From IMG/VR virus record IMGVR_UViG_3300042397_001422: DNA of 64,000 nt, one strand, 5' to 3'. Both the position numbers and the translations under genes were made by a program. Positions 4,054 to 58,703 of the stretch are shown in pieces; position 1 is the first letter of the stretch; each line of letters opens with the position of its first letter. The DNA comes from an uncultured virus (IMG/VR IMGVR_UViG_3300042397_001422) (Duplodnaviria > Heunggongvirae > Uroviricota > Caudoviricetes). The notes under the pieces were generated by a model that saw only the letters and a program-made list of their open reading frames with translations, made no database searches and was not told the origin of the DNA.

Positions 4054-6534
4054 ATGGCCCGTTTCTTTTTTATTTTGTTACTATTTCCATTTGTAGCGTT
4101 TTCTCAAACCTCCCAATTAAGTGGAGAAACAAAATCCAAAACCGAAAAAATATATTTTTCACATATTACATTTGAAGATGTGAATGGTAATAAGTTTTCT
4201 ACAATTTCTAATGAAAACGCTGAATACAAAATCAATCTAAAATTAGGTGTATATAAAATCAAAGCATCTTATGTTGGTTATACTACCTATACAACACAAA
4301 TAAACTTAATATCAGATACTACATTTGATATTATATTGTTGGATGATACAAAGCAATTATCAGAAGTCGTTGTTAGAGCAGCAAATCAAAAAGTAACTGA
4401 TGTAGCAGTAGTTAGAACAATCCGAAATAGTAATGTAGTATCCGATGGAGTATCCATAGAATTCATTAAAAAAACACCTGATAGAAATGTTGGTGATGCT
4501 CTTAAAAGAGTAAGTGGTGTAACAATCCAAAACGATAAGTTTGTATTAGTAAGAGGATTGGCGGATAGATACAATTCAGCTATCTTAAACAAAACCCTAC
4601 TACCATCAACCGAACCTGATAGGAGAGCATTTTCATTTGATATAATTCCAACAGCATTAATTGATAATATTATAGTTGCTAAATCAGCATCGGCAAATCA
4701 GCCAGGTGATTGGAGTGGTGGATTGGTTCAGATTACAACAAAAGAAGTTTCTGATAACTTTTTTAATATCTCATTGGGAAGTGGTTGGGGTTTAGTTTCA
4801 ACTTTAAAGGATTTTAAGTTAGTTCAAGCTACTGAATTCCCTTCCACATTCCCATCTACATACGGATACCGTGTTAGTAGTAATGGTGATAAAAGATTAT
4901 ACACAAAGCAATTCAGTAATCCAATAGTAGATGGGTTTACTTCATCCCCAAACTTAAATGGTGGATTATCATTTGGTGTAAAGAAAAACAAATTCAACGC
5001 TCTATTCAGTTCAACCCTTAGAAACACATATGGAATAAATTACATAGATAGAATCGATTACCAATCCTCAACCGAATTAGCATACGATTATAGAGATACA
5101 TTGTATACAAAAAGATTTTCCGCAAATGGTTTATTGAATTTAACTTATTTAGGTGAGAACCGATATAGTTGGAAAACATTAGTGAACTATCAAACGGATG
5201 ATTCTTATATGAATAGAAATGGTGAGAACTATGATAATGTTCAGAATGTTCATAGTAATTCATCTAACCACATAAATAATATTGTAGTTAATTCTCAATT
5301 CGATGGTAAACTTAAAACATGGGATTTTAATTTAGGGTATAATTTAATTTTAAGAGAACAACCTGATTATAGAGTTAATCCAATTACAAAATCATTAGGA
5401 GTAAACGAACCATATACTACGGCGTGGAGAGATACATATCGTTTTTGGAGTGTGATGGATGAAAACTCTTTTAGTGGTAACATTAACAAATCATTTGGTG
5501 ATATTAAGATTGGTGGTGGCTACTTAAAAAAGATTAGAGGATTTAATGCAAGAATATTCCGTTATCTTTCAACTGATATGTTAGATGAGATAACAAACAA
5601 TACAGACAAATACACTGCTGATTTTGATTTAGGTAGTGGGTATGTAATGTGGGATAAAGAATTTGGTTTATGGAAATTAAATACAGGTGTTAGAACCGAA
5701 TATAATTTATTTGGTGTATCTACTGCAGATTTTAGTGGAAGTAAAGTTAAAGTTAATAGAGAGTATTTAGATGTATTACCATCTCTAAATCTTTCATACA
5801 ATTTAGAAAAAATAAAGTATAGATTTTCATTAAGTAAAACATTAGCAAGACCGGAGTTTAGAGAAGTTGCTAATTTTGCTTATTATGATTTTGTAAGAAA
5901 TGCACAATTATTGGGTAATCCTAAATTAGAAAAATCTGACATATATAATTTAGATTTGAAATGGGAATTATATCCAAAAGCAGGAGAGAATATTTCAGTA
6001 TCCCTATTTGGTAAGAACTTCATAAAACCAATTGAACAAGTAGTAGCAGATGGGTCAGTTCCATCTAACTTATTATTAACTTACGCAAACCCTGATAACG
6101 CGTATCTTTATGGTGTTGAATTAGAATTTCGTAAAAAGGTAACTGAATGGTTTGATTTTTATACAAACGCTTCGGTAATGAATTCGGAAGTAAACGTGAA
6201 AGGAGTTAAAAGACAATTACAAGGACAATCAAATTATGTATTAAATGGTGGGGTTAATATCCACAAAAACAAAAACACACTTAACGTAACTTACAATAGA
6301 GTAGGCGATAGAATATCAGCAATAGGATTTCAAGGTTATCCAGACATTTTTGAAAATAGTAGAGATGTATTGGATGTGACCCTTTTACATAAATTAAATA
6401 AAGGTGAAATAAAATTGGCAATAGGTGATTTGTTTGGCCAACAATCAATCTATTATCAAAAATTACAAAACCGAAATTTGATAAAAACAAACAATGAACA
6501 AACAATTTCTTTAACATTAAATTTAACATTATGA
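4054..6534 (+). CDS. TonB-dependent outer membrane receptor
   Basis: Signal peptide, N-terminal beta-sandwich, plug (DALKRVSGV, VRGLADRYN), barrel motifs LPSLNLSY, ARPEFRE, GNPKL. Confidence 0.9.
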   Translation: MARFFFILLLFPFVAFSQTSQLSGETKSKTEKIYFSHITFEDVNGNKFSTISNENAEYKINLKLGVYKIKASYVGYTTYTTQINLISDTTFDIILLDDTKQLSEVVVRAANQKVTDVAVVRTIRNSNVVSDGVSIEFIKKTPDRNVGDALKRVSGVTIQNDKFVLVRGLADRYNSAILNKTLLPSTEPDRRAFSFDIIPTALIDNIIVAKSASANQPGDWSGGLVQITTKEVSDNFFNISLGSGWGLVSTLKDFKLVQATEFPSTFPSTYGYRVSSNGDKRLYTKQFSNPIVDGFTSSPNLNGGLSFGVKKNKFNALFSSTLRNTYGINYIDRIDYQSSTELAYDYRDTLYTKRFSANGLLNLTYLGENRYSWKTLVNYQTDDSYMNRNGENYDNVQNVHSNSSNHINNIVVNSQFDGKLKTWDFNLGYNLILREQPDYRVNPITKSLGVNEPYTTAWRDTYRFWSVMDENSFSGNINKSFGDIKIGGGYLKKIRGFNARIFRYLSTDMLDEITNNTDKYTADFDLGSGYVMWDKEFGLWKLNTGVRTEYNLFGVSTADFSGSKVKVNREYLDVLPSLNLSYNLEKIKYRFSLSKTLARPEFREVANFAYYDFVRNAQLLGNPKLEKSDIYNLDLKWELYPKAGENISVSLFGKNFIKPIEQVVADGSVPSNLLLTYANPDNAYLYGVELEFRKKVTEWFDFYTNASVMNSEVNVKGVKRQLQGQSNYVLNGGVNIHKNKNTLNVTYNRVGDRISAIGFQGYPDIFENSRDVLDVTLLHKLNKGEIKLAIGDLFGQQSIYYQKLQNRNLIKTNNEQTISLTLNLTL

Positions 6535-30829: not shown

Positions 30830-30868
30830 TTTGGAAATGTGGTAAATAATGTGTAGTTTAGCTTTATA
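30830..30868 (+). promoter_or_regulatory. phage-variant promoter
   Basis: TTTG-N20-TAGTTTAG-CTTTATA. Confidence 0.7.
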
Positions 30869-30931
30869 ACAATGAGAGATAACACCCCTAATAGTAAGAC
30901 CCAAAATAATTTAAAAATAAATGGGTAAAAA

Positions 30932-50884: not shown

Positions 50885-51185
50885 GGATTACTTAACGAAA
50901 ACCTTTCCATTGAGTGATGGAACGACCTACACACAAAACATAGACAAACACATGGGAGTATATGAAGATGGTAACAATAGAGTTTACCAATTGCAAATCC
51001 TTAATATACAAGGAGATAATGAAAGATTAAAAGCAGAGATTCAACAATTACATGCGGAAGCAGTAGAGTTGAGAGATGAGATTCGTCAATTAAGAGAAGA
51101 TGCAGAAAGATGGAGAAACCATCAAGAATTTGTTTCTCAATATATACCTTATTCAACCGGTGATGATACTGAATTTTTATTGTAA
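50874..51185 (+). CDS. coiled-coil hypothetical protein
   Basis: ORF; start uncertain. Confidence 0.55.
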   Translation: MKREDYLTKTFPLSDGTTYTQNIDKHMGVYEDGNNRVYQLQILNIQGDNERLKAEIQQLHAEAVELRDEIRQLREDAERWRNHQEFVSQYIPYSTGDDTEFLL

Positions 51186-51341
51186 CCCATATGGCACGAA
51201 TAGACCCCAATAATATAGAGAAGTGGGAGTATACCGAAACTCCTGTAAAAATAAAATTAAAACCCCGTCCAAAAACTAAAGAGGCAACTGATAAGAAAAA
51301 AGATACATGGATAGGAGTTAACAAAAAACAACGATGGTAAT

Positions 51342-51533
51342 ATGAAAAAATATTATAGAAGTGAATTGGATAAAAAGATATGGGGAGTATGTAGTGGATT
51401 AGCAAGATACACTAATAGTGATGTTGCAATTTGGAGAGTATTATTTCTCGCATCGATATTCACACCATTTCCGGCAATCCTATTTTATTGTATTGCAACC
51501 ATAGTAACGGAATCAATTGAGTATTTAGATTAA
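51342..51533 (+). CDS. pspC: PspC domain protein
   Basis: YRS..DKKIWGVCSGLARY..D..WR followed by TM. Confidence 0.85.
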   Translation: MKKYYRSELDKKIWGVCSGLARYTNSDVAIWRVLFLASIFTPFPAILFYCIATIVTESIEYLD

Positions 51534-51581
51534 ACCCCAATTGGTCTAACTAATACGAAGGCCGCAACGAATCCGACCGGT

Positions 51582-51695
51582 ATGATAAAGAATAAAAAAG
51601 AATATAAGAGGGATGGGGAATATGCAATGAGGGCAGTAGTGGTAGTATTGATAATATCTTTACTACTAATGTTTTTAACCCCACTCAATCCGTAA
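51582..51695 (+). CDS. 37-aa single-TM peptide
   Basis: MIKNKKEYKRDGEYAMRAVVVVLIISLLLMFLTPLNP; flanked by complementary arms. Confidence 0.45.
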   Translation: MIKNKKEYKRDGEYAMRAVVVVLIISLLLMFLTPLNP

Positions 51696-51938
51696 CATCG
51701 ATTTGGTCAATTCGTTCGGCCGGAGTCGTCAACTAGGATTTTTTTGATAGTAATATGAATGTAAGTATAAACGATATTAAAGAAATAGGAGTACAACATG
51801 GTATCCTATTAAGTGAGGAGCAACTCCATAAGGTACTAAGTGAATACAATAGAATAGTAATGGATAAAGCGGAAAGTTGGGATGAGTTAATAAACCACCT
51901 AATCATAAATCTAAAAGAACAAAATAAATAATAAGGTT

Positions 51939-52133
51939 ATGAAATGGCTAGTAAAATTTGTAGAGAATCACTTATGGTTCGTAGAGAGGAGTAATCAATT
52001 TATGAGAGGAACGCCTCGAATCCAATACCTCCTTCGATATCCCCTTGCATGGGTAAGATTTATGTACTCCGCGATGGGAAGGGATGCGAAGGAATTAACG
52101 ACACGTAAAAGGAATAGGAATACACATGGGTAA
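51939..52133 (+). CDS. hypothetical protein
   Basis: ORF with A-rich leader. Confidence 0.45.
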   Translation: MKWLVKFVENHLWFVERSNQFMRGTPRIQYLLRYPLAWVRFMYSAMGRDAKELTTRKRNRNTHG

Positions 52134-52297
52134 ACAAAACGAACTATGTACGATATGTGGGACACTCATTCAAATCGTAGGGGAATGTCCGACGTGTTGG
52201 GAGAGGTCAAATAAATAAGGAATTGCGTAACACTAAAGAGGATAATGACTCACATAGTAGTAACTAAGTAGGGGATACACATCAATGGGACAAGGAT

Positions 52298-52335
52298 AAG
52301 GATACACTCAGATGAAATGAGGATATCCTTTTTTT
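52298..52335 (+). terminator. possible terminator
   Basis: AAGGATA..CTCA-GATGAAA-TGAG..TATCCTT followed by T run. Confidence 0.45.
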
Positions 52336-52411
52336 ATGTCCATACGATAGGACACCCAGTACACACAATAAGGATAGCGTAGGGAGTCCACATAGTATAA
52401 AAGAAAGAGTA

Positions 52412-52625
52412 CACACCCTTCACTCATGGTATTTAGCTCACACTGCTGGGGGTACTCGAGAGTGCTGAGAGGTGAGGATATCGAGGGGTTTTAAGGGGAT
52501 TCTATGCCCATGCGGTGAAATTATACCACCCCATTGGAGTTAACCCCTCGATATCCTCCTAAGCGGGTCTTATCACTATTGTGGATGGGGCTTCTTAGTT
52601 AAGTAGTTGCACAATGAAGGGCGTG
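52412..52625. other. multibranch structured element (ncRNA or ssDNA structure)
   Basis: Perfect 17-bp inverted repeat 52474-52490/52542-52558; closing stem 52412-52422/52615-52625. Confidence 0.5.
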
Positions 52626-52740
52626 GAACAATAATTTATGACACATTTTCCCACAACCTCCCACCCTATGACACTATATCCATATATACTCATAGCCACT
52701 ACACCTTTGTTTGCACATAAAAAAATTTTCTATCGCTTAT

Positions 52741-52781
52741 TTTTACACACGTTATTCACATTTGTATACGAGTTATCCACA
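52741..52781 (+). promoter_or_regulatory. DnaA-box cluster
   Basis: TTTTACACA, TTATTCACA and TTATCCACA all match TTWTNCACA. Confidence 0.55.
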
Positions 52782-52904
52782 TTTGTGATTCGGACATTAT
52801 GTCATAGTGCCAATTCACTCCGGATTGCAATATCCGCAACGGGATGGGGGATTCCTTGAACGCATTGCAAATCGCTCAAATCGGACACATTGTCATCCTT
52901 TTTA

Positions 52905-52936
52905 TTTGGAAATGTGGATTTTTTTCCGTACCTTTA
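52905..52936 (+). promoter_or_regulatory. Bacteroidota-type promoter
   Basis: TTTG-N20-TACCTTTA. Confidence 0.6.
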
Positions 52937-53103
52937 TAGGGTGGGTGGGCGGAGTGCGTTGGACTGTAACGACCCAGTTTGGTTTCCTTCGTGACTGCAT
53001 AAGGGATTCAGGGTCAATTCGTTATCACATTTGTATTTTATGGGGATTCTTTTGTTATATAATTTGCATTATGTTAACCAGGTTGTATTATTTTGGGAAA
53101 ATA

Positions 53104-53126
53104 AAGCGGTTGATACTCAATCGCTT
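53104..53126. repeat. TTG-N5-CAA palindrome
   Basis: AAGCGGTTG-ATACT-CAATCGCTT. Confidence 0.6.
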
Positions 53127-53168
53127 AGCACTGGAAGACATCCTGTCAGTAAAATAAATGGGAAATAA

Positions 53169-53207
53169 TTTGGAAATGTGAAATATTATGTGTAGATTAG
53201 CTTTATA
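53169..53207 (+). promoter_or_regulatory. phage-variant promoter
   Basis: TTTG-N20-TAGATTAG-CTTTATA. Confidence 0.7.
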
Positions 53208-53219
53208 ACAATGAGAGAT

Positions 53220-53450
53220 ATGAAATACAACCCTAATTCCCTTTACTACCGATTGAATCCAAATCATCTGGAGTATCTATTAAGTACTGAACCTTCTTTT
53301 CCTTATACCATCAGTATGGTACTGGATGAGTTAAGAACCGAAGTCAATTGGACGAGGTTGAGTTATGATAGTGTATGTAACCTAGTGAACTTCCTTTCAC
53401 TATCTGATTACTCTCCTTCTACTATTGATAAACTTTTTACAAACAAATAA
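53220..53450 (+). CDS. hypothetical protein
   Basis: ORF after promoter; start 53211 or 53220. Confidence 0.6.
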   Translation: MKYNPNSLYYRLNPNHLEYLLSTEPSFPYTISMVLDELRTEVNWTRLSYDSVCNLVNFLSLSDYSPSTIDKLFTNK

Positions 53451-53462
53451 ACCCCATATATT

Positions 53463-53894
53463 ATGATTAGTGTAAATAAAACGAATTTGGTCTTTGATGA
53501 TATCGCGAATGAATTGTTCGAAGATAAGTTAATGAGTACCCATTGGAGTGAAGTAAATAAAAGATACTTACTCCGAATCTATCACCCACTAAAGAATGTG
53601 ATGGAGTATCTATCTAAACCGAAGTGGACGAATGTAATCTACGAGATGGGTGAGAGTTCTCCTGGTTATTACTCTTGTGTATATAAGAGTCTTAAAGAGA
53701 TTGGTGTTCTTACCTATAACCCTACTGAACGAATGTTAGAGAAAGGTCCTAATTGGGATAGATTCTATTCTGATGCGGATTGGAGTTGGTTCTATATGAA
53801 TACATCATCTGGTATGAGGTCTTATGAAATCTTTAATAAGGTGGGACATAGAGTCAATAAGAGATATCGTTCTAATTACCGAAACTCTAACTAA
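53463..53894 (+). CDS. hypothetical protein
   Basis: ORF in cassette. Confidence 0.6.
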   Translation: MISVNKTNLVFDDIANELFEDKLMSTHWSEVNKRYLLRIYHPLKNVMEYLSKPKWTNVIYEMGESSPGYYSCVYKSLKEIGVLTYNPTERMLEKGPNWDRFYSDADWSWFYMNTSSGMRSYEIFNKVGHRVNKRYRSNYRNSN

Positions 53895-53925
53895 CTGATA
53901 GTCAGAGAGATTGATTTCAAATAAA

Positions 53926-53964
53926 TTTGGTAGTCTCCCTTATTATTTGTATATTAGCTTTGTA
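53926..53964 (+). promoter_or_regulatory. phage-variant promoter
   Basis: TTTG-N20-TATATTAG-CTTTGTA. Confidence 0.7.
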
Positions 53965-53994
53965 ATGAGAGAGAAACCCCTAACCCCTAATCCT

Positions 53995-54243
53995 ATGAAC
54001 ATAACCCCTAACACTATGAGCCGTCTGAAATCCCTAATGAACCTAGTCAATATCACCGAAGGTGGACCGGGTATGAAACCTAATGAATTTCAAGCGTACT
54101 GCGAACTGGCAGGAATACAAACAGTTTCGTTGGTCACATCCCCTACTGATTTTAATAAAGGGATATACCACGTCACTCTACCTGAATATGGTTACCGATG
54201 TGCGTACGCAGTGAATGGTCAACCGGTCGTAATAACTAATTAA
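53995..54243 (+). CDS. hypothetical protein, paralog of 54260
   Basis: GMKPNEFQAYC..TDFNKGIYHVTLPEY; start uncertain. Confidence 0.6.
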   Translation: MNITPNTMSRLKSLMNLVNITEGGPGMKPNEFQAYCELAGIQTVSLVTSPTDFNKGIYHVTLPEYGYRCAYAVNGQPVVITN

Positions 54244-54259
54244 CCCTAAAAACAAATAT

Positions 54260-54469
54260 ATGAGAGTATCATTAAAAAACTTAATCGCTGCAACTACTGG
54301 TATGAATCCGGTCGAATTCGAAGCCTATTGTGACAATAACCAAATTCAAATCGAATGGTTGGATGTTACCCTAACGGATTTCAATGATGGGTTCTACAAT
54401 GTATCCCTACCCGATTACAACGATATAAACGTATTCGCTAGTAATGGTTCAGCAGTAGAGTTTCCCTAA
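54260..54469 (+). CDS. hypothetical protein, paralog of 53995
   Basis: GMNPVEFEAYC..TDFNDGFYNVSLPDY. Confidence 0.6.
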   Translation: MRVSLKNLIAATTGMNPVEFEAYCDNNQIQIEWLDVTLTDFNDGFYNVSLPDYNDINVFASNGSAVEFP

Positions 54470-54518
54470 CCCATTGGTAGTCAACCCGTTAAGCTAACTC
54501 GTTGATACTCAATCAAGA
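54468..54518. repeat. two tandem TTG-N5-CAA motifs
   Basis: AACCCATTG-GTAGT-CAACCCGTT and AACTCGTTG-ATACT-CAATC. Confidence 0.5.
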
Positions 54519-54542
54519 ACTTTTAAAAAACCAGGTCAATAA

Positions 54543-54581
54543 TTTGGAAATACGGAAAAACTGCCGTATCTTAGCTTTATA
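54543..54581 (+). promoter_or_regulatory. phage-variant promoter
   Basis: TTTG-N20-TATCTTAG-CTTTATA. Confidence 0.7.
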
Positions 54582-54593
54582 ACAATGAGAGAT

Positions 54594-54698
54594 ATGAACA
54601 CACACATTACAATTTTAGAAGCGGTATTAATCGCAGTAGTAACCATCGTTGGATACGCCTTTTTTAAAACCACGTTAGAACACATTAAACACAAGTAA
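54594..54698 (+). CDS. small TM peptide
   Basis: MNTHITILEAVLIAVVTIVGYAFFKTTLEHIKHK. Confidence 0.5.
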   Translation: MNTHITILEAVLIAVVTIVGYAFFKTTLEHIKHK

Positions 54699-54699
54699 T

Positions 54700-54900
54700 A
54701 TGAAATTGAATTTAACCCCTGAACATGTGGAGGTGCTTAAGATAGCCTTATCCGAAATGTTCAATAGTGATACATGGATTAGAGACCGTGAAGAGAGTGA
54801 GATAAATAGAATAGCTGAAAGAGCTGGATATCTATTGGGTGTCATTGAATCACATACTCCACTACCCAAATCCCTATTCACCTTAAACGAAAACCGATAA
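54700..54900 (+). CDS. hypothetical protein
   Basis: ORF in cassette. Confidence 0.55.
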   Translation: MKLNLTPEHVEVLKIALSEMFNSDTWIRDREESEINRIAERAGYLLGVIESHTPLPKSLFTLNENR

Positions 54901-54991
54901 TATGAGTAGACGTATTCAGTCCTATGTGGACGTAATAACAATGGAACAACCTACCCTATGGGAAGTAATCCAAAAAATAGTTACCCAAATA

Positions 54992-55023
54992 TTTGGTAGT
55001 ATCAAATAATTGTCGTATCTTTA
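54992..55023 (+). promoter_or_regulatory. Bacteroidota-type promoter
   Basis: TTTG-N20-TATCTTTA. Confidence 0.65.
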
Positions 55024-55098
55024 CTAAGTAAACAACATTAATAAATGGGGTAAAGGCTGGGACCCCTATTCAACACCGGCCGTTAAATCATAAACACT

Positions 55099-55320
55099 AT
55101 GGCAAAAATGTCAAAGAAAGCAGGGACAACTTCAAAGAAGGCATCTGCAAAGAGAAAAACTCAGTATGAGTCAGTTCAATCAAACATCCAAAAAATCACT
55201 AGCCCTACTGGTAACGTAAGTTACAGAGTACGTGTAGCTGTTGAGGGTGAGAAATTTTCAGTATCTACGAAGTCTTTGAATAAGGCACGTATTGCTAGAA
55301 AAGAATTATTGGCTGCTTAA
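55099..55320 (+). CDS. small basic nucleic-acid-binding protein (AP2-like topology)
   Basis: Lys-rich tail; SYRVRV..G..F..SL.KAR.AR. Confidence 0.55.
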   Translation: MAKMSKKAGTTSKKASAKRKTQYESVQSNIQKITSPTGNVSYRVRVAVEGEKFSVSTKSLNKARIARKELLAA

Positions 55321-55346
55321 TTAGCATCTAATGGTTAGGTAATAAC

Positions 55347-55376
55347 AAATGGGACTGTAATAGGTCCCATTTTTTT
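55347..55376 (+). terminator. intrinsic terminator
   Basis: AAATGGGAC-N8-GTCCCATTT followed by T run. Confidence 0.75.
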
Positions 55377-55386
55377 ACACATTAAA

Positions 55387-55424
55387 TTTGGAAATACGGA
55401 TTTTTATTCGTATCTTAGCTTTAT
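55387..55424 (+). promoter_or_regulatory. phage-variant promoter
   Basis: TTTG-N20-TATCTTAG-CTTTAT. Confidence 0.75.
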
Positions 55425-55642
55425 AAGAATAGGTCATCCGATTGAGTGTTCTCTAGGATGCCGGAAGATATAGTTGTAAATCCCGCGGGTATTACCACAC
55501 GGGTGTCTATTACCCTACTCATAGCTAAGGGGTTGGTTATGAAGTAGTTAAAAAAGGGAGGCCTCTCATTCTCTCCTATCCTGAAATGTTCATTCTGAAC
55601 TACCCATCTCGAGATTAGCCTCCGCGAGATGGGTTATTTTTT
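55425..55642 (+). ncRNA. candidate structured non-coding RNA
   Basis: Lies between its own promoter and terminator; several hairpins; no convincing ORF. Confidence 0.6.
55602..55642 (+). terminator. intrinsic terminator
   Basis: ACCCATCTCG-N13-CGAGATGGGT followed by TATTTTTT. Confidence 0.75.
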
Positions 55643-55675
55643 GCCTAAAATAGTTTAAAAATAAATGGTTAAATA

Positions 55676-55714
55676 TTTGGAAATGTGGATTATTCTTTGT
55701 AGATTAGCTTTATA
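55676..55714 (+). promoter_or_regulatory. phage-variant promoter
   Basis: TTTG-N20-TAGATTAG-CTTTATA. Confidence 0.7.
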
Positions 55715-55727
55715 AACAATGAGAGAT

Positions 55728-56183
55728 ATGACAAATTTAATTGAGTTGACAACAGGAACAATGGCGGGTGGAGTATTCTATGGTACTATCCGTATTAATG
55801 GTAATCGAATCACAGTTGGTAACCTAATGGAAACCGGTGTTGATTATAAGTTCCGAATGATTACTAAAGCAAGAGCTGGATTCCCTATCATTGCAGAAGT
55901 TACTTGTAAGGTGGAGGCGTTACCATACTATCTATCTAAACACACTACCTATGTGGAATTCTTCAAAGAGAGTGAGTTAGGGTATAAGGGGAGTTGGTTC
56001 TCCGTTCTGACTACCAAAGGTGGTAAATGGAATAGTATTGATAAGAGCCTCTTAGAGAGTTTGACAGTAGGTGATATGCATGGTGCGTTCCCTAAGATGG
56101 TTGACTGGAACATATGGAAAGCGATGAACACGAAGTTCCATAGTTGTAAGTCCTTCGTTTACAATACTCCTAAGGCGGCATAA
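55728..56183 (+). CDS. hypothetical protein
   Basis: ORF after promoter; start 55719 or 55728. Confidence 0.65.
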   Translation: MTNLIELTTGTMAGGVFYGTIRINGNRITVGNLMETGVDYKFRMITKARAGFPIIAEVTCKVEALPYYLSKHTTYVEFFKESELGYKGSWFSVLTTKGGKWNSIDKSLLESLTVGDMHGAFPKMVDWNIWKAMNTKFHSCKSFVYNTPKAA

Positions 56184-56220
56184 AATGTTGATAACTTTCT
56201 GAAAAATAATTGGTAAAACA

Positions 56221-56259
56221 TTTGGTAATACCGATTATTCTTCGTATGTTAGCTTTGTA
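56221..56259 (+). promoter_or_regulatory. phage-variant promoter
   Basis: TTTG-N20-TATGTTAG-CTTTGTA. Confidence 0.7.
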
Positions 56260-56288
56260 ATAAGAGATAAACAATTAAAATATAAAAC

Positions 56289-56867
56289 ATGAAAAGTAAG
56301 AAAATCGCAATCGTAGTAAATGGAGTTAAAGTTGAGTTACCTGCAGAGGTCATCAGAATGAGAAATGATGGTGTTACCCCCTATATCTATGGTAGTCCAG
56401 TAATCGCCGGTAAGATAGTTAAATCATATACCAAGTCCAAATACCCTAACATCCTGATATGGTGTAAATCATCATCCTTCGCTAATGGTAACTCATTAGA
56501 TGTGGATATGTGTATGCCAGACGGGTCTGAAGTTGAAGTGAGTATCTACGCTGATATCAGAACCATCGCCAACTCATTTGAGTATGGTAAGTTTAATGGT
56601 TGGACAGATTGTTACGATTCATACGAAGTAAGTGGTATGAAGACTGAGAATGGTACTGAAATCGAGGCAGGTGTGAAATATGTTCATGTTGGTAATAAGG
56701 CGCCTTTCGGAACATATCCTGATGTGATTCGTATGTTGACCGATATGATTGCCGGTAAGTACGTTTGGGGACCGATATCCTTAGAGAAGGCGATTGAGAA
56801 GGTTAAGAGTTACAAAGTAACCGATGCCACTATCGAGAAAGCCTTACCTTACTTAAAGGTTGCGTAA
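56289..56867 (+). CDS. LPD29-like domain protein
   Basis: KYP..S.SFANGNSLDV..FEYGKFNGWTDCY. Confidence 0.5.
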   Translation: MKSKKIAIVVNGVKVELPAEVIRMRNDGVTPYIYGSPVIAGKIVKSYTKSKYPNILIWCKSSSFANGNSLDVDMCMPDGSEVEVSIYADIRTIANSFEYGKFNGWTDCYDSYEVSGMKTENGTEIEAGVKYVHVGNKAPFGTYPDVIRMLTDMIAGKYVWGPISLEKAIEKVKSYKVTDATIEKALPYLKVA

Positions 56868-56875
56868 CACTAATA

Positions 56876-57223
56876 ATGAAAATGACTCAAATTATAAAAC
56901 ATAAACCCAATAGTATGAACGGATTAAAAGAATTAGAAGCTGGTATATGGAAGTATAAGAACGTAAAGATACTCTATACACCATCAGAGAAGTACCCCGA
57001 TATGGTCTACATCGAGAAGGGACCAGCAAAAATGAAATCTATTATAGATAGGAGATACATCACCTTAGAGAAAGCAATCATCGCAGTAGATGTGCAAGGA
57101 GCAGAGAATCTGATAAGAGGAGGAAAGAGGGAAGCGATTCGCGAACTGGAAGAGTTAGGTCTCTCAAGTTCTATGACTCCGGAGGAAGTAGCGGAGAATC
57201 CACAAGTAGACCTCTTAGGCTAA
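56876..57223 (+). CDS. hypothetical protein
   Basis: ORF in cassette. Confidence 0.6.
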   Translation: MKMTQIIKHKPNSMNGLKELEAGIWKYKNVKILYTPSEKYPDMVYIEKGPAKMKSIIDRRYITLEKAIIAVDVQGAENLIRGGKREAIRELEELGLSSSMTPEEVAENPQVDLLG

Positions 57224-57435
57224 GTATGTAACAATATGTATCACACTGCACTAGGAGGGAGGGGAGCTGTAGCTTACCCCGCCCCTTGAGGTTTCTTGTA
57301 ACTCAAGAAAAGGCGAAGAGGCCCGAAGGGGCTCGGATACGTTTTTTTATCGAGGCGAGCTTTTTCACTCTAGGAAAAAATAGGCTGGTTACCCCTATGG
57401 GGTGATATAGTATATCAAAGAATAAATGAGTCAAT

Positions 57436-57822
57436 ATGAGTATGAATACAGCAAATACATTAGGAATTATTAAAAAGGTAATGAGTAGTGGAAATACAAT
57501 ACCAATAGTAACAGTTACTAGTGGTCCAACCGGAACACGTACTCCAAACGGAAACTACCGATTAACCGAACGCCATAAGGCAGGTATTGAAAAGATGATT
57601 TGGCATTTTGATTCCTTACATAACTTTGGCAAGGCGTTCGAAGTCCATATTGGGTTTCGAGAAGATGGTCATACACCCCATTTGATTACCCTAAATGGTT
57701 CAGCGATTGTCAAACATTTAGGGGGAGTCTTAGATTTCGAGGTCTATGGGGAAGATGGTAGGGATATCCTTAATGGGATTCGGGAGTGTTATTCCAATGA
57801 TAGGCTTCAAATGGGAAGTTAA
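57436..57822 (+). CDS. hypothetical protein
   Basis: ORF. Confidence 0.55.
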   Translation: MSMNTANTLGIIKKVMSSGNTIPIVTVTSGPTGTRTPNGNYRLTERHKAGIEKMIWHFDSLHNFGKAFEVHIGFREDGHTPHLITLNGSAIVKHLGGVLDFEVYGEDGRDILNGIRECYSNDRLQMGS

Positions 57823-57844
57823 GGGTGGGTACTTCTTTTTTAGA

Positions 57845-57876
57845 TTTGGAAATATGGAATACTTTTCGTATCTTTG
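57845..57876 (+). promoter_or_regulatory. Bacteroidota-type promoter (consensus match)
   Basis: TTTG-N20-TATCTTTG. Confidence 0.8.
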
Positions 57877-57894
57877 GTATAAATAATTAATAAT

Positions 57895-58110
57895 ATGAGT
57901 AACGAAATAACAAATGAAAGTGGTATCATTAAGATAGAAGTCACAAAGGATGGTAAAGTAGTAACGGCACAAATGTATGTAGACCACTACTTAGAACATA
58001 CAAAAACCAATAGTGGAATAGGTGATTCAATGATACAAAGTGTCCTAAGTGAATTAGATATCCATTATGTATTACCGACAAACGAAACAATAAATAGGAA
58101 TACGATATGA
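57895..58110 (+). CDS. hypothetical protein
   Basis: ORF directly after promoter. Confidence 0.6.
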   Translation: MSNEITNESGIIKIEVTKDGKVVTAQMYVDHYLEHTKTNSGIGDSMIQSVLSELDIHYVLPTNETINRNTI

Positions 58111-58445
58111 TAGGTTTAAGAGAGTTGAGATTGGAGGTACTGAGATTAATAGATATGTATCCCAAACAGGCAGATGAGTTAAGGGATTTATATCACCTTG
58201 CTGTATCTGAGATTGAGGAGGGTGGTTCGGAGAGTAATGAGTGTTCTCTTGCTTGGAGGGATATGTTGGAGTTGGTAGGTGAGTAAGTGGGTAGAGAGGA
58301 GTATTAGTATTATAGGTTTCCTTATAGGGGTTGTCTTAGGTATACTCTTTGTCTTATGGGGATTGAGTAATTACTTAGTTCTTATCCTTACTACTATGGG
58401 TAAGTGAGTCATTAGTATCATTAGTGTTACGCAAAACGAATTGGT

Positions 58446-58703
58446 ATGAAACATGAAGTATTAAAACCAATACAAAAGGAATGGTTGGGTTGGTTGATAA
58501 AAGATGAATGGGATTGGATGATTCGAACTAAGGTTCAGGCGAGTAACCATCGCCAACAATTAGCTTGGACTTATACGTCGGGAGTATATGATGCATCCAC
58601 CAAAGGGCTTCTTACTTATATCTTAGAAGAGTTTAATGAGGATTCACAAGTTAAACATCGATGGTATCTTAAAAAGGAATGGGATAAAGCAAATGTAATA
58701 TGA
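58446..58703 (+). CDS. hypothetical protein
   Basis: ORF overlapping clpS start. Confidence 0.55.
   Translation: MKHEVLKPIQKEWLGWLIKDEWDWMIRTKVQASNHRQQLAWTYTSGVYDASTKGLLTYILEEFNEDSQVKHRWYLKKEWDKANVI

Follow-up and report, generated by a model that had tools for sequence, protein, structure and literature searches.

The element considered here occupies positions 55425–55642 on the + strand of a 64,000-nucleotide (nt) stretch of DNA (‘the window’, at its full length) from an uncultured virus of the class Caudoviricetes (IMG/VR record IMGVR_UViG_3300042397_001422), and is probably a small regulatory RNA from an undescribed family. Our best reading, tentatively held and to which we would give a little less than an even chance, is that it constitutes a lineage-specific, phage-encoded small non-coding RNA (sRNA) gene with a product of ~215 nt that acts in trans by base-pairing; this mode of action is suggested by analogy with intergenic sRNAs of the Bacteroidota, such as GibS. 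An earlier description made from the letters of the DNA alone (the ‘sequence-only reading’) had proposed a standalone structured RNA with its own promoter and terminator; we find the anatomy that it gave to be right, and its interpretation as a standalone structured regulatory RNA to be plausible.

Transcription signals and coding potential

Working along the + strand in the direction of transcription, we see that the upstream gene is closed off by an intrinsic terminator at 55347–55376 (AAAUGGGAC...GUCCCAUUU and then a U-run; -13.9 kcal/mol, z -4.85, equalled by 0 of 200 shuffles), the stem of which is kept in one near-identical strain (L036) despite different letters in the loop and inner stem. 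Beyond this lies a promoter cassette (55387–55427), composed of TTTGGAAAT at 55387–55395, a spacer palindrome (ATACGG..CGTAT) and a -7 box, TAGCTTTA, at 55416–55423. The cassette 12-mer TTAGCTTTATAA, found here at 55415–55426, recurs throughout the window: allowing one mismatch at most, there are 11 copies (10 on the + strand) against 1.41 expected, a count reached by none of 100 shuffles. Nine of the + strand copies carry the full upstream block, and the eight that do not belong to the RNA directly precede open reading frames (ORFs); the 12-mers of these cassettes start at 30858, 30960, 33191, 53197, 53954, 54571, 55415, 55704 and 56249, with a variant near 57843. A simple sigma-70 scan was uninformative (16 sites, 18.1 expected). 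The -7 box does, in turn, resemble the sigma-A consensus of the Bacteroidota, TAnnTTTG, placed at -12 to -5 in the account given for Flavobacterium psychrophilum (PMC9723704), and from its position the RNA is predicted to start near A55428.

The candidate non-coding RNA would then run from 55428 to 55642 (~215 nt, promoter to U-tract end), terminating within an intrinsic terminator of its own (55602–55642) that comprises a 10–11 bp stem, a 13-nt loop containing GCCUCC (55618–55623) and a U-run (55637–55642); stem-loop (55602–55634) and U-run together reach -16.5 kcal/mol, with a z-score of -4.6 and, again, no equal among 200 shuffles. Both the upstream terminator and the promoter of the sequence-only reading are thus present, and the element does occupy a whole promoter-to-terminator cassette, in the manner of the neighbouring genes. 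Its portrayal as a GC-richer stretch holds in mild form: the GC fraction of the element is ~0.43–0.44 against 0.32 for the window, but neighbouring genes already span 0.35–0.43. Expression of the RNA may be ‘early’, a description that comes solely from its shared promoter class.

Taken in its own right, the cassette is ~60 nt long (AAAAATAAATGG.., TTTGG[AT]AAT, a variable palindromic spacer, TTAGCTTT[AG]TAA), with at least nine + strand copies, clustered in the 53–58 kb region. Its spacers are of two types, ATACGG..CGTAT and ATGTGG..TGTAGA, and may be operator sites. The TTTG lies ~25 nt from the -7 box, a greater distance than that separating the host -33 element from its own -7 box. The cassettes at 30858 and 30960 stand in tandem, ~100 nt apart and with no terminator between them, the first being followed by an 18-codon frame (MRDNTPNSKTQNNLKING).

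Might the cassette serve a small protein instead? Only two ORFs of at least 25 amino acids are found within it, each of 33 amino acids and one per strand; the sole candidate on the + strand comprises 33 codons from GUG 55446, or 29 from AUG 55458 (MPEDIVV...), and ends at 55547. The single substitution recorded inside this frame (55535, UUG>UUA) is synonymous, as a coding sequence would favour, though one such change is without statistical weight. Start context, one of our two criteria for a small-protein gene beside a frame conserved in homologs, speaks against it: scored with a matrix derived from 87 phage starts, the 29-codon frame receives -6.37, which is below 85 of the 87 genes and also below the average for 1598 ATGs that are not gene starts (-3.04). 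Around its start the RNA folds at -6.5 kcal/mol, more stably than at any of the 87 gene starts (mean -1.55), the AUG (55458–55460) being contained in the 3' arm of the first hairpin of the RNA, and ~95 nt of further RNA lie between the stop of the frame and the terminator. The peptide finds nothing similar in 50,697 GenBank phage records (tblastn, best E = 8) and no Pfam family. We consider a small-protein gene very unlikely; by sequence criteria the element lacks a credible ORF and appears to be non-coding, much as the sequence-only reading had it.

Fold, strain variation and RNA libraries

All five helices described from the letters exist where they had been placed, and all are part of the minimum-free-energy (MFE) fold. 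Three hairpins beat their shuffled counterparts: the terminator; hairpin 1 (55432–55462; GGTCATCC/GGATGCC, or GGUCAUCC/GGAUGCC as RNA, with an inner GAG/CUC helix), for which z is -2.5 and 3 of 200 shuffles are equal; and hairpin 3 (55515–55547), a 14-bp helix that includes two G-U pairs and is capped by a GGGG loop (z -3.65, 1 of 200). Between them, hairpin 2 (55482–55503; CCCG-GGGU/ACC-CGGG) is not significant alone (z -1.5, 14 of 200), and the heptamer UAUUACC appears twice, at 55490–55496 and 55507–55513. An A-run linker (55550–55555) leads from hairpin 3 to a weak hairpin 4 (55555–55577; AGGGAGG/UCUC-UCC), which bears GGGAGG, a sequence like that of Shine-Dalgarno (SD) sites, together with an 8-nt loop; with a z-score of -0.7, this helix is without support on its own. 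Hairpin 5 (55588–55600; GUUCA/UGAAC) is likewise in the predicted fold, and immediately precedes the terminator. For the complete 218 nt, the advantage over shuffles is modest (z -2.0, equalled by 7 of 200), and the MFE ranks third against 160 phage windows of the same length.

The element is known from the window's contig and four near-identical strains: an IMG/VR contig (L002/L013/L027) and the metagenome contigs L034–L036. One more variant is present in a contig from an RNA library (X18). The five DNA sequences (97–99.5% alike) differ by four substitutions and one indel, the latter leaving the linker as A6 or A3. C55439>U (L036) converts a C-G to a U-G pair in the stem of hairpin 1, G55535>A (L002) a U-G to a U-A pair in hairpin 3, and position 55627, in the terminator stem, is A in the window (U-A) but G in each of the other four strains (U-G); T55450>A lies within the loop of hairpin 1. 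The X18 contig adds A55592>G, by which an A-U pair of hairpin 5 becomes G-U. Across the six variants there are then five substitutions, four in stems and one in a loop. Each of the four in stems is a transition after which the + strand RNA still pairs at that position, where an RNA from the reverse strand would acquire an A-C mismatch. By a rough reckoning, which assumes that about half of transitions and no transversions preserve pairing, four of four would arise by chance with a probability of ~0.01–0.06; suggestive, not decisive. In the five DNA sequences, 335 of 335 pair cells hold standard pairs, a figure for which the shuffle control is without power. As a separate observation, strain L035 has an 85-nt insertion (L035 positions 1364–1448) directly after 55647, containing a second hairpin and then a U-run.

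Twenty public sequencing runs hold all or part of 55100–56200, six of them recorded as RNA (18–35% of sampled words). We compared four RNA runs, from four studies and selected for holding the element region, with 51000–58600 (7.6 kb), and see that contigs cover the element in each one: 55463–55613 in X15 (which has a second contig at 54943–55435), 55328–55573 in X16, 55420–55592 in X17 and 55237–55647 in X18. The upstream gene, ORF73, is also covered in all four, and is contiguous with the element in three. Three small libraries leave most of the 7.6 kb uncovered, which argues against uniform carry-over of DNA; the uncovered parts themselves were not counted as evidence. ORF73 has the deepest RNA-contig cover in the 7.6 kb, though depth is no valid ranking here.

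Three more GC-richer stretches of the window that lack a convincing ORF also fold strongly (51534–51740, 52134–52640 and 57224–57435); of the 160 windows of 218 nt, the two at 52401 (-76.2 kcal/mol) and 57201 (-69.7 kcal/mol) are the most stable. The stretch at 57224–57345, in which a run of purines (GGAGGGAGGGGAG) occurs, closes with a hairpin and U-run; RNA contigs touch 51540–52098. A search of Rfam at E-values of up to 1 across 51000–58600, which takes in all three, gave no match.

Candidate seed, attenuation and host

In the mechanism that we propose for the sRNA, transcription from the host-type cassette (near A55428) to the intrinsic terminator (55642) would yield an RNA of ~215 nt, the exposed pyrimidine-rich loops of which would pair in trans with mRNAs. 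One such loop, CUCUCAUU (55563–55570), could pair with AAUGAGAG, the extreme 5' end, start codon included, of at least five leaderless early mRNAs, and pairing at this site would damp or time their translation. Of the leads to a function, this pairing is the most concrete, and we rate it as rather improbable. It comes from the arrangement of the early genes: AUGAGAGA is found within 2–3 nt of five of the nine cassettes (at 30870, 53211, 53968, 54585 and 55719, encoding N-termini MRD or MRE), so that the five mRNAs would be leaderless, or nearly so, with a common 5' end, (A)AUGAGAG. Of the six + strand copies of AATGAGAG in the 64 kb, five are at promoter-proximal starts, and the sole minus-strand copy is 55563–55570 itself, that is, the predicted 8-nt loop of hairpin 4. 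The loop is calculated to be accessible: it costs 0.64 kcal/mol to open and is unpaired with a probability of 0.89. Five probably leaderless mRNAs are in themselves unusual for the phylum, the figure given for leaderless mRNAs in F. psychrophilum being 5.5%, or about one in twenty (PMC9723704).

Other approaches to targets were set aside. When gene starts were searched with duplexfold, long-loop duplexes of an unrealistic kind made up most of the output; k-mer counts were dominated by A/T-rich words, and a second motif, AACCCCUAA, opposite the loop of hairpin 3, was dropped as mostly coding for an N-terminal ‘..NP..’.

The pairing can be extended to a class-wide ‘anti-leader’, in which the loop would clamp the shared 5' ends and the GGGAGG/GCCUCC pair would be the switch that frees or hides the seed. 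A single small RNA would, by this means, set the timing of an entire temporal class of phage genes, or silence it, in a host whose phylum starts translation independently of SD pairing. We think this very improbable.

A further possibility, and one we hold to be highly doubtful, is that the element acts in cis, as a leader or attenuator for the downstream gene, ORF154 (55719–56183): RNA made from the upstream member of a tandem promoter pair would stop at the terminator unless switched. This could occur by two routes. In one, a ribosome would be drawn by the SD-like AAGGGAGG to a short frame (AUU 55568 or AUG 55586 to UAG 55616–55618) that enters the 5' arm of the terminator; in the other, GGAGGC (55557–55562) would pair with the GCCUCC of the terminator loop. 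Where transcripts read through, CUCUCAUU might in addition cover the start of ORF154 (AAUGAGAG at 55718–55725). The GGAGGC/GCCUCC complementarity, remarked upon in the sequence-only reading as a possible pseudoknot or termination switch, is real as complementarity: the duplex is worth -10.4 kcal/mol and the loop site opens for 1.42 kcal/mol, against which GGAGGC is otherwise paired and costs 5.86 kcal/mol to open. Both 6-mers are invariant among the strain variants. GGGAGG is rare (five + strand copies in 64 kb), the short frame does overlap the terminator arm, the cassettes at 30858 and 30960 provide a precedent for tandem promoters with no terminator between them, and one RNA contig extends 42 nt past the terminator.

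With their SD-like site, short frame over the 5' arm of a terminator and downstream gene, leader-peptide attenuators share an outline with the element; the differences are that the nearest model, His_leader (RF00514), scores 13.8 bits against a cut-off of 49, that no antiterminator helix was found by inspection, and that SD sequences are not used by the host phylum or by this phage. Moreover, a full promoter cassette (55677–55718) lies between the terminator and ORF154, and would drive this strain-variable gene from a leaderless mRNA beginning (A)AUGAGAGAUAUG, while the second hairpin and U-run inserted in L035 insulate the two rather than couple them.

Returning to the phage as a whole, the window (GC 31.8%, with every long ORF on the + strand) belongs to a jumbo-phage contig of 229 kb in IMG/VR, with related contigs of 47–271 kb. 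Few of its proteins match phage families, and those that do are auxiliary: a methyltransferase, an AAA ATPase, NifU, ferredoxins, ClpS, PspC, a tail collar and a lysin. At 4054–6531 it encodes a SusC-like, TonB-dependent outer-membrane receptor (CarboxypepD_reg, Plug and beta-barrel domains), an unusual auxiliary gene for a phage and a clue to the host; since this protein is 62–64% identical to those of Aquirufa species and metagenome-assembled genomes, the host is probably a member of that freshwater genus (Cytophagales, Bacteroidota). An SD-like 4-mer precedes 3 of 87 phage genes, as compared with 10.7% of random sites, and leaders are A-rich; scarcity of SD sites and the Bacteroidota-like promoter box are both consistent with a host from this phylum. 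Large aquatic Bacteroidota phages that lack an RNA polymerase of their own have been described (PMC12619734), which we mention solely as context for the present phage.

Distribution, competing explanations and known systems

Consistent with the sequence-only reading, which had not recognised a known family, Rfam 15 (4227 models) gave no match to any part of the 64 kb at the gathering threshold. With E-values of up to 10 admitted for 55300–55720, five matches were returned, all well under threshold, the best being SraG on the minus strand (21.9 against 50 bits); ARAGORN detected no transfer RNA (tRNA) or transfer-messenger RNA (tmRNA) gene in the window. A blastn search with the element against the GenBank phage records found nothing, nor did an exact 23-mer in 185,579 species genomes. 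Two exact 15-mers gave 11 and 6 loci in IMG/VR, of which the window's contig and one relative are real and the others chance; these scans were not exhaustive, the first having missed the relative's contig, which holds that 15-mer and was returned with the second. Three further near-identical strains came from a 22-mer search of JGI metagenome contigs. A covariance model, for which two sequences were used, scores the element at 279 bits, and has no match in the rest of the window, to which the search for paralogs was confined, or in five Aquirufa genomes; 141 genomes of the host order yield a single 32-nt match (E 0.418).

These negatives bear on the notion of a protein-binding or decoy RNA, either a sponge for an RNA-binding protein of host or phage, or a mimic of a host RNA. 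The several hairpins, the repeated UAUUACC and the purine-rich and pyrimidine-rich tracts could all suit such a role, and the element adjoins, and in RNA libraries is covered together with, the gene for a small basic protein, ORF73. Saying this, relatives have ORF73 homologs and no RNA, there is no similarity to Rfam families, 6S, Y-like, tRNA and tmRNA included, and the host-genome searches just described provide no homolog to be mimicked; we see this, too, as highly unlikely.

ORF73 (55099–55320, + strand) encodes a small lysine-rich protein of no Pfam or PHROG family, for which homologs of 52–53% identity exist in three of four related jumbo-phage records. Because relatives carry such homologs without the RNA, and only near-identical strains match the element, the cassette is, on this comparison of sequences, a recent and clade-specific module.

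A number of observations weigh against the sRNA reading, the first of them structural. The claim that the RNA is unusually structured is borne out for the terminator and for hairpins 1 and 3 and fails for the body without its terminator (z -0.88, 44 of 200 shuffles equal), and the reverse strand has a better z-score than the + strand (z -3.44). There is no covariation among the five sequences (0 pairs changed on both sides; 3 changed on one side, all still paired), because no distant homolog exists; the preference for + strand helices voiced in the sequence-only reading is therefore matched by the strain substitutions and not by compensatory double changes. The covariance model finds no match in nine related jumbo-phage records, two of which reach a completeness of 96% or more, and at the syntenic site the ORF73 homologs of relatives are followed by a terminator and a promoter that leads into a protein gene, the RNA being absent. 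Nor is the element better conserved than its surroundings, an idea rejected by per-region comparison: its identity among strains is 97.2–99.5%, that of the flanks 96–100%, and only ORF154 diverges.

The RNA libraries contribute further points of this kind. In three of the four runs contigs bridge the upstream terminator and promoter spacer, and the X18 contig continues for its 42 nt beyond 55647 into sequence foreign to the window, probably an insertion of the L035 type. Contigs show neither strand nor ends, such that the beginning of the X17 contig at 55420 is no evidence of a start. Read-through from ORF73 is likely to add to the RNA cover of the element, and read-through transcripts or library DNA may be the source of the RNA contigs. 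Of the discrete standalone transcript originally claimed, what stands is that the region is found as RNA in all four runs; a discrete 215-nt species is putative, given contigs that lack ends and strand, bridge the upstream terminator in three runs and, in X18, also pass the downstream one. As for the seed, the 8-nt perfect match between CUCUCAUU and AAUGAGAG was found post hoc and is weak, its length being equalled by 212 of 5000 shuffles (~4%) and its duplex energy by 108 of 1000, and an sRNA under the promoter class of its own proposed targets would be an odd design for shut-off.

Several of these same points are shared with an explanation that dispenses with function, namely that the element is a transcribed spacer: a recombination leftover, in one narrow clade, of promoter, unrelated or decayed sequence and terminator. 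On this view, the early region would be an assembly of modules, with recombination taking place at the conserved promoter and terminator cassettes; exchange is evident next door, where ORF154 is 78–80% identical between cassettes that are 96–100% identical and the L035 insertion falls exactly after the terminator; absence from all nine related records and their syntenic sites, ordinary conservation and a body that folds no better than shuffles fit this picture also. We nonetheless judge it unlikely. There is no trace of a decayed gene, the best E-value being 0.8 when relatives and the remainder of the window were searched with tblastx; none of the four stem substitutions breaks pairing, three hairpins beat shuffles, the element is intact in all six variants, and RNA contigs lie over it in all four runs.

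ORF154 is, independently of this, a hot spot of strain diversity (71% amino acid identity in L002), its divergence bounded exactly by the conserved cassettes and including many non-synonymous changes, with mismatches by codon position of about 23/18/41; the pattern looks like allele replacement or the fast evolution of an early gene.

Turning back to the preferred sRNA reading, phage-encoded sRNAs are reportedly present in transcriptome maps of the Pseudomonas phages phiKZ and PAK_P3, which infect a different host phylum; their sRNAs are experimental transcripts, and have no homology to the present one. To our knowledge, the regulatory RNAs of Bacteroidota phages and environmental jumbo phages are almost unexplored, and a literature search, not exhaustive, found none for either. 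The lambda sRNA LPR1/PreS is similarly a small, non-coding, phage-encoded transcript, thought to be a base-pairing regulator during infection; as presented in the preprint (bioRxiv 10.1101/2024.10.31.621285), it belongs to another host phylum, is an experimental transcript with validated host targets and shares no homology with the present RNA, which is known from metatranscriptome contigs and is proposed to target leaderless early mRNAs of the phage itself.

Closest in kind are the intergenic sRNAs of Bacteroides, those of high confidence being defined in the published survey by a transcription start site and a Rho-independent terminator (PMC7366714). The phage element has such a terminator, fits the description as non-coding and has a promoter cassette directly upstream, its 5' end being a predicted one. 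According to the same source, GibS of Bacteroides thetaiotaomicron pairs with start-codon regions; like GibS, the phage RNA would have a start of its own, a Rho-independent terminator, an intergenic location and no ORF, would operate in a host whose phylum lacks both Hfq and ProQ, and is proposed to pair across a start codon (PMC7366714). Unlike GibS, it is phage-encoded and has no sequence or model similarity to that RNA; it is more structured and richer in GC (0.44, against ~35% for the largely unstructured GibS type), its putative seed is an 8-nt hairpin loop instead of a long single-stranded 5' region, and its targets are candidates only (PMC7366714).

The element is, then, a well-delimited and narrowly distributed candidate sRNA in an uncultured freshwater jumbo phage, matched by no described family. 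If real, it would represent a new sRNA family, expressed in lakes, with an anatomy of promoter, terminator and candidate seed that is clean enough for direct tests; and were the ‘anti-leader’ idea to prove true, it would amount to a simple means of controlling a whole class of leaderless mRNAs.

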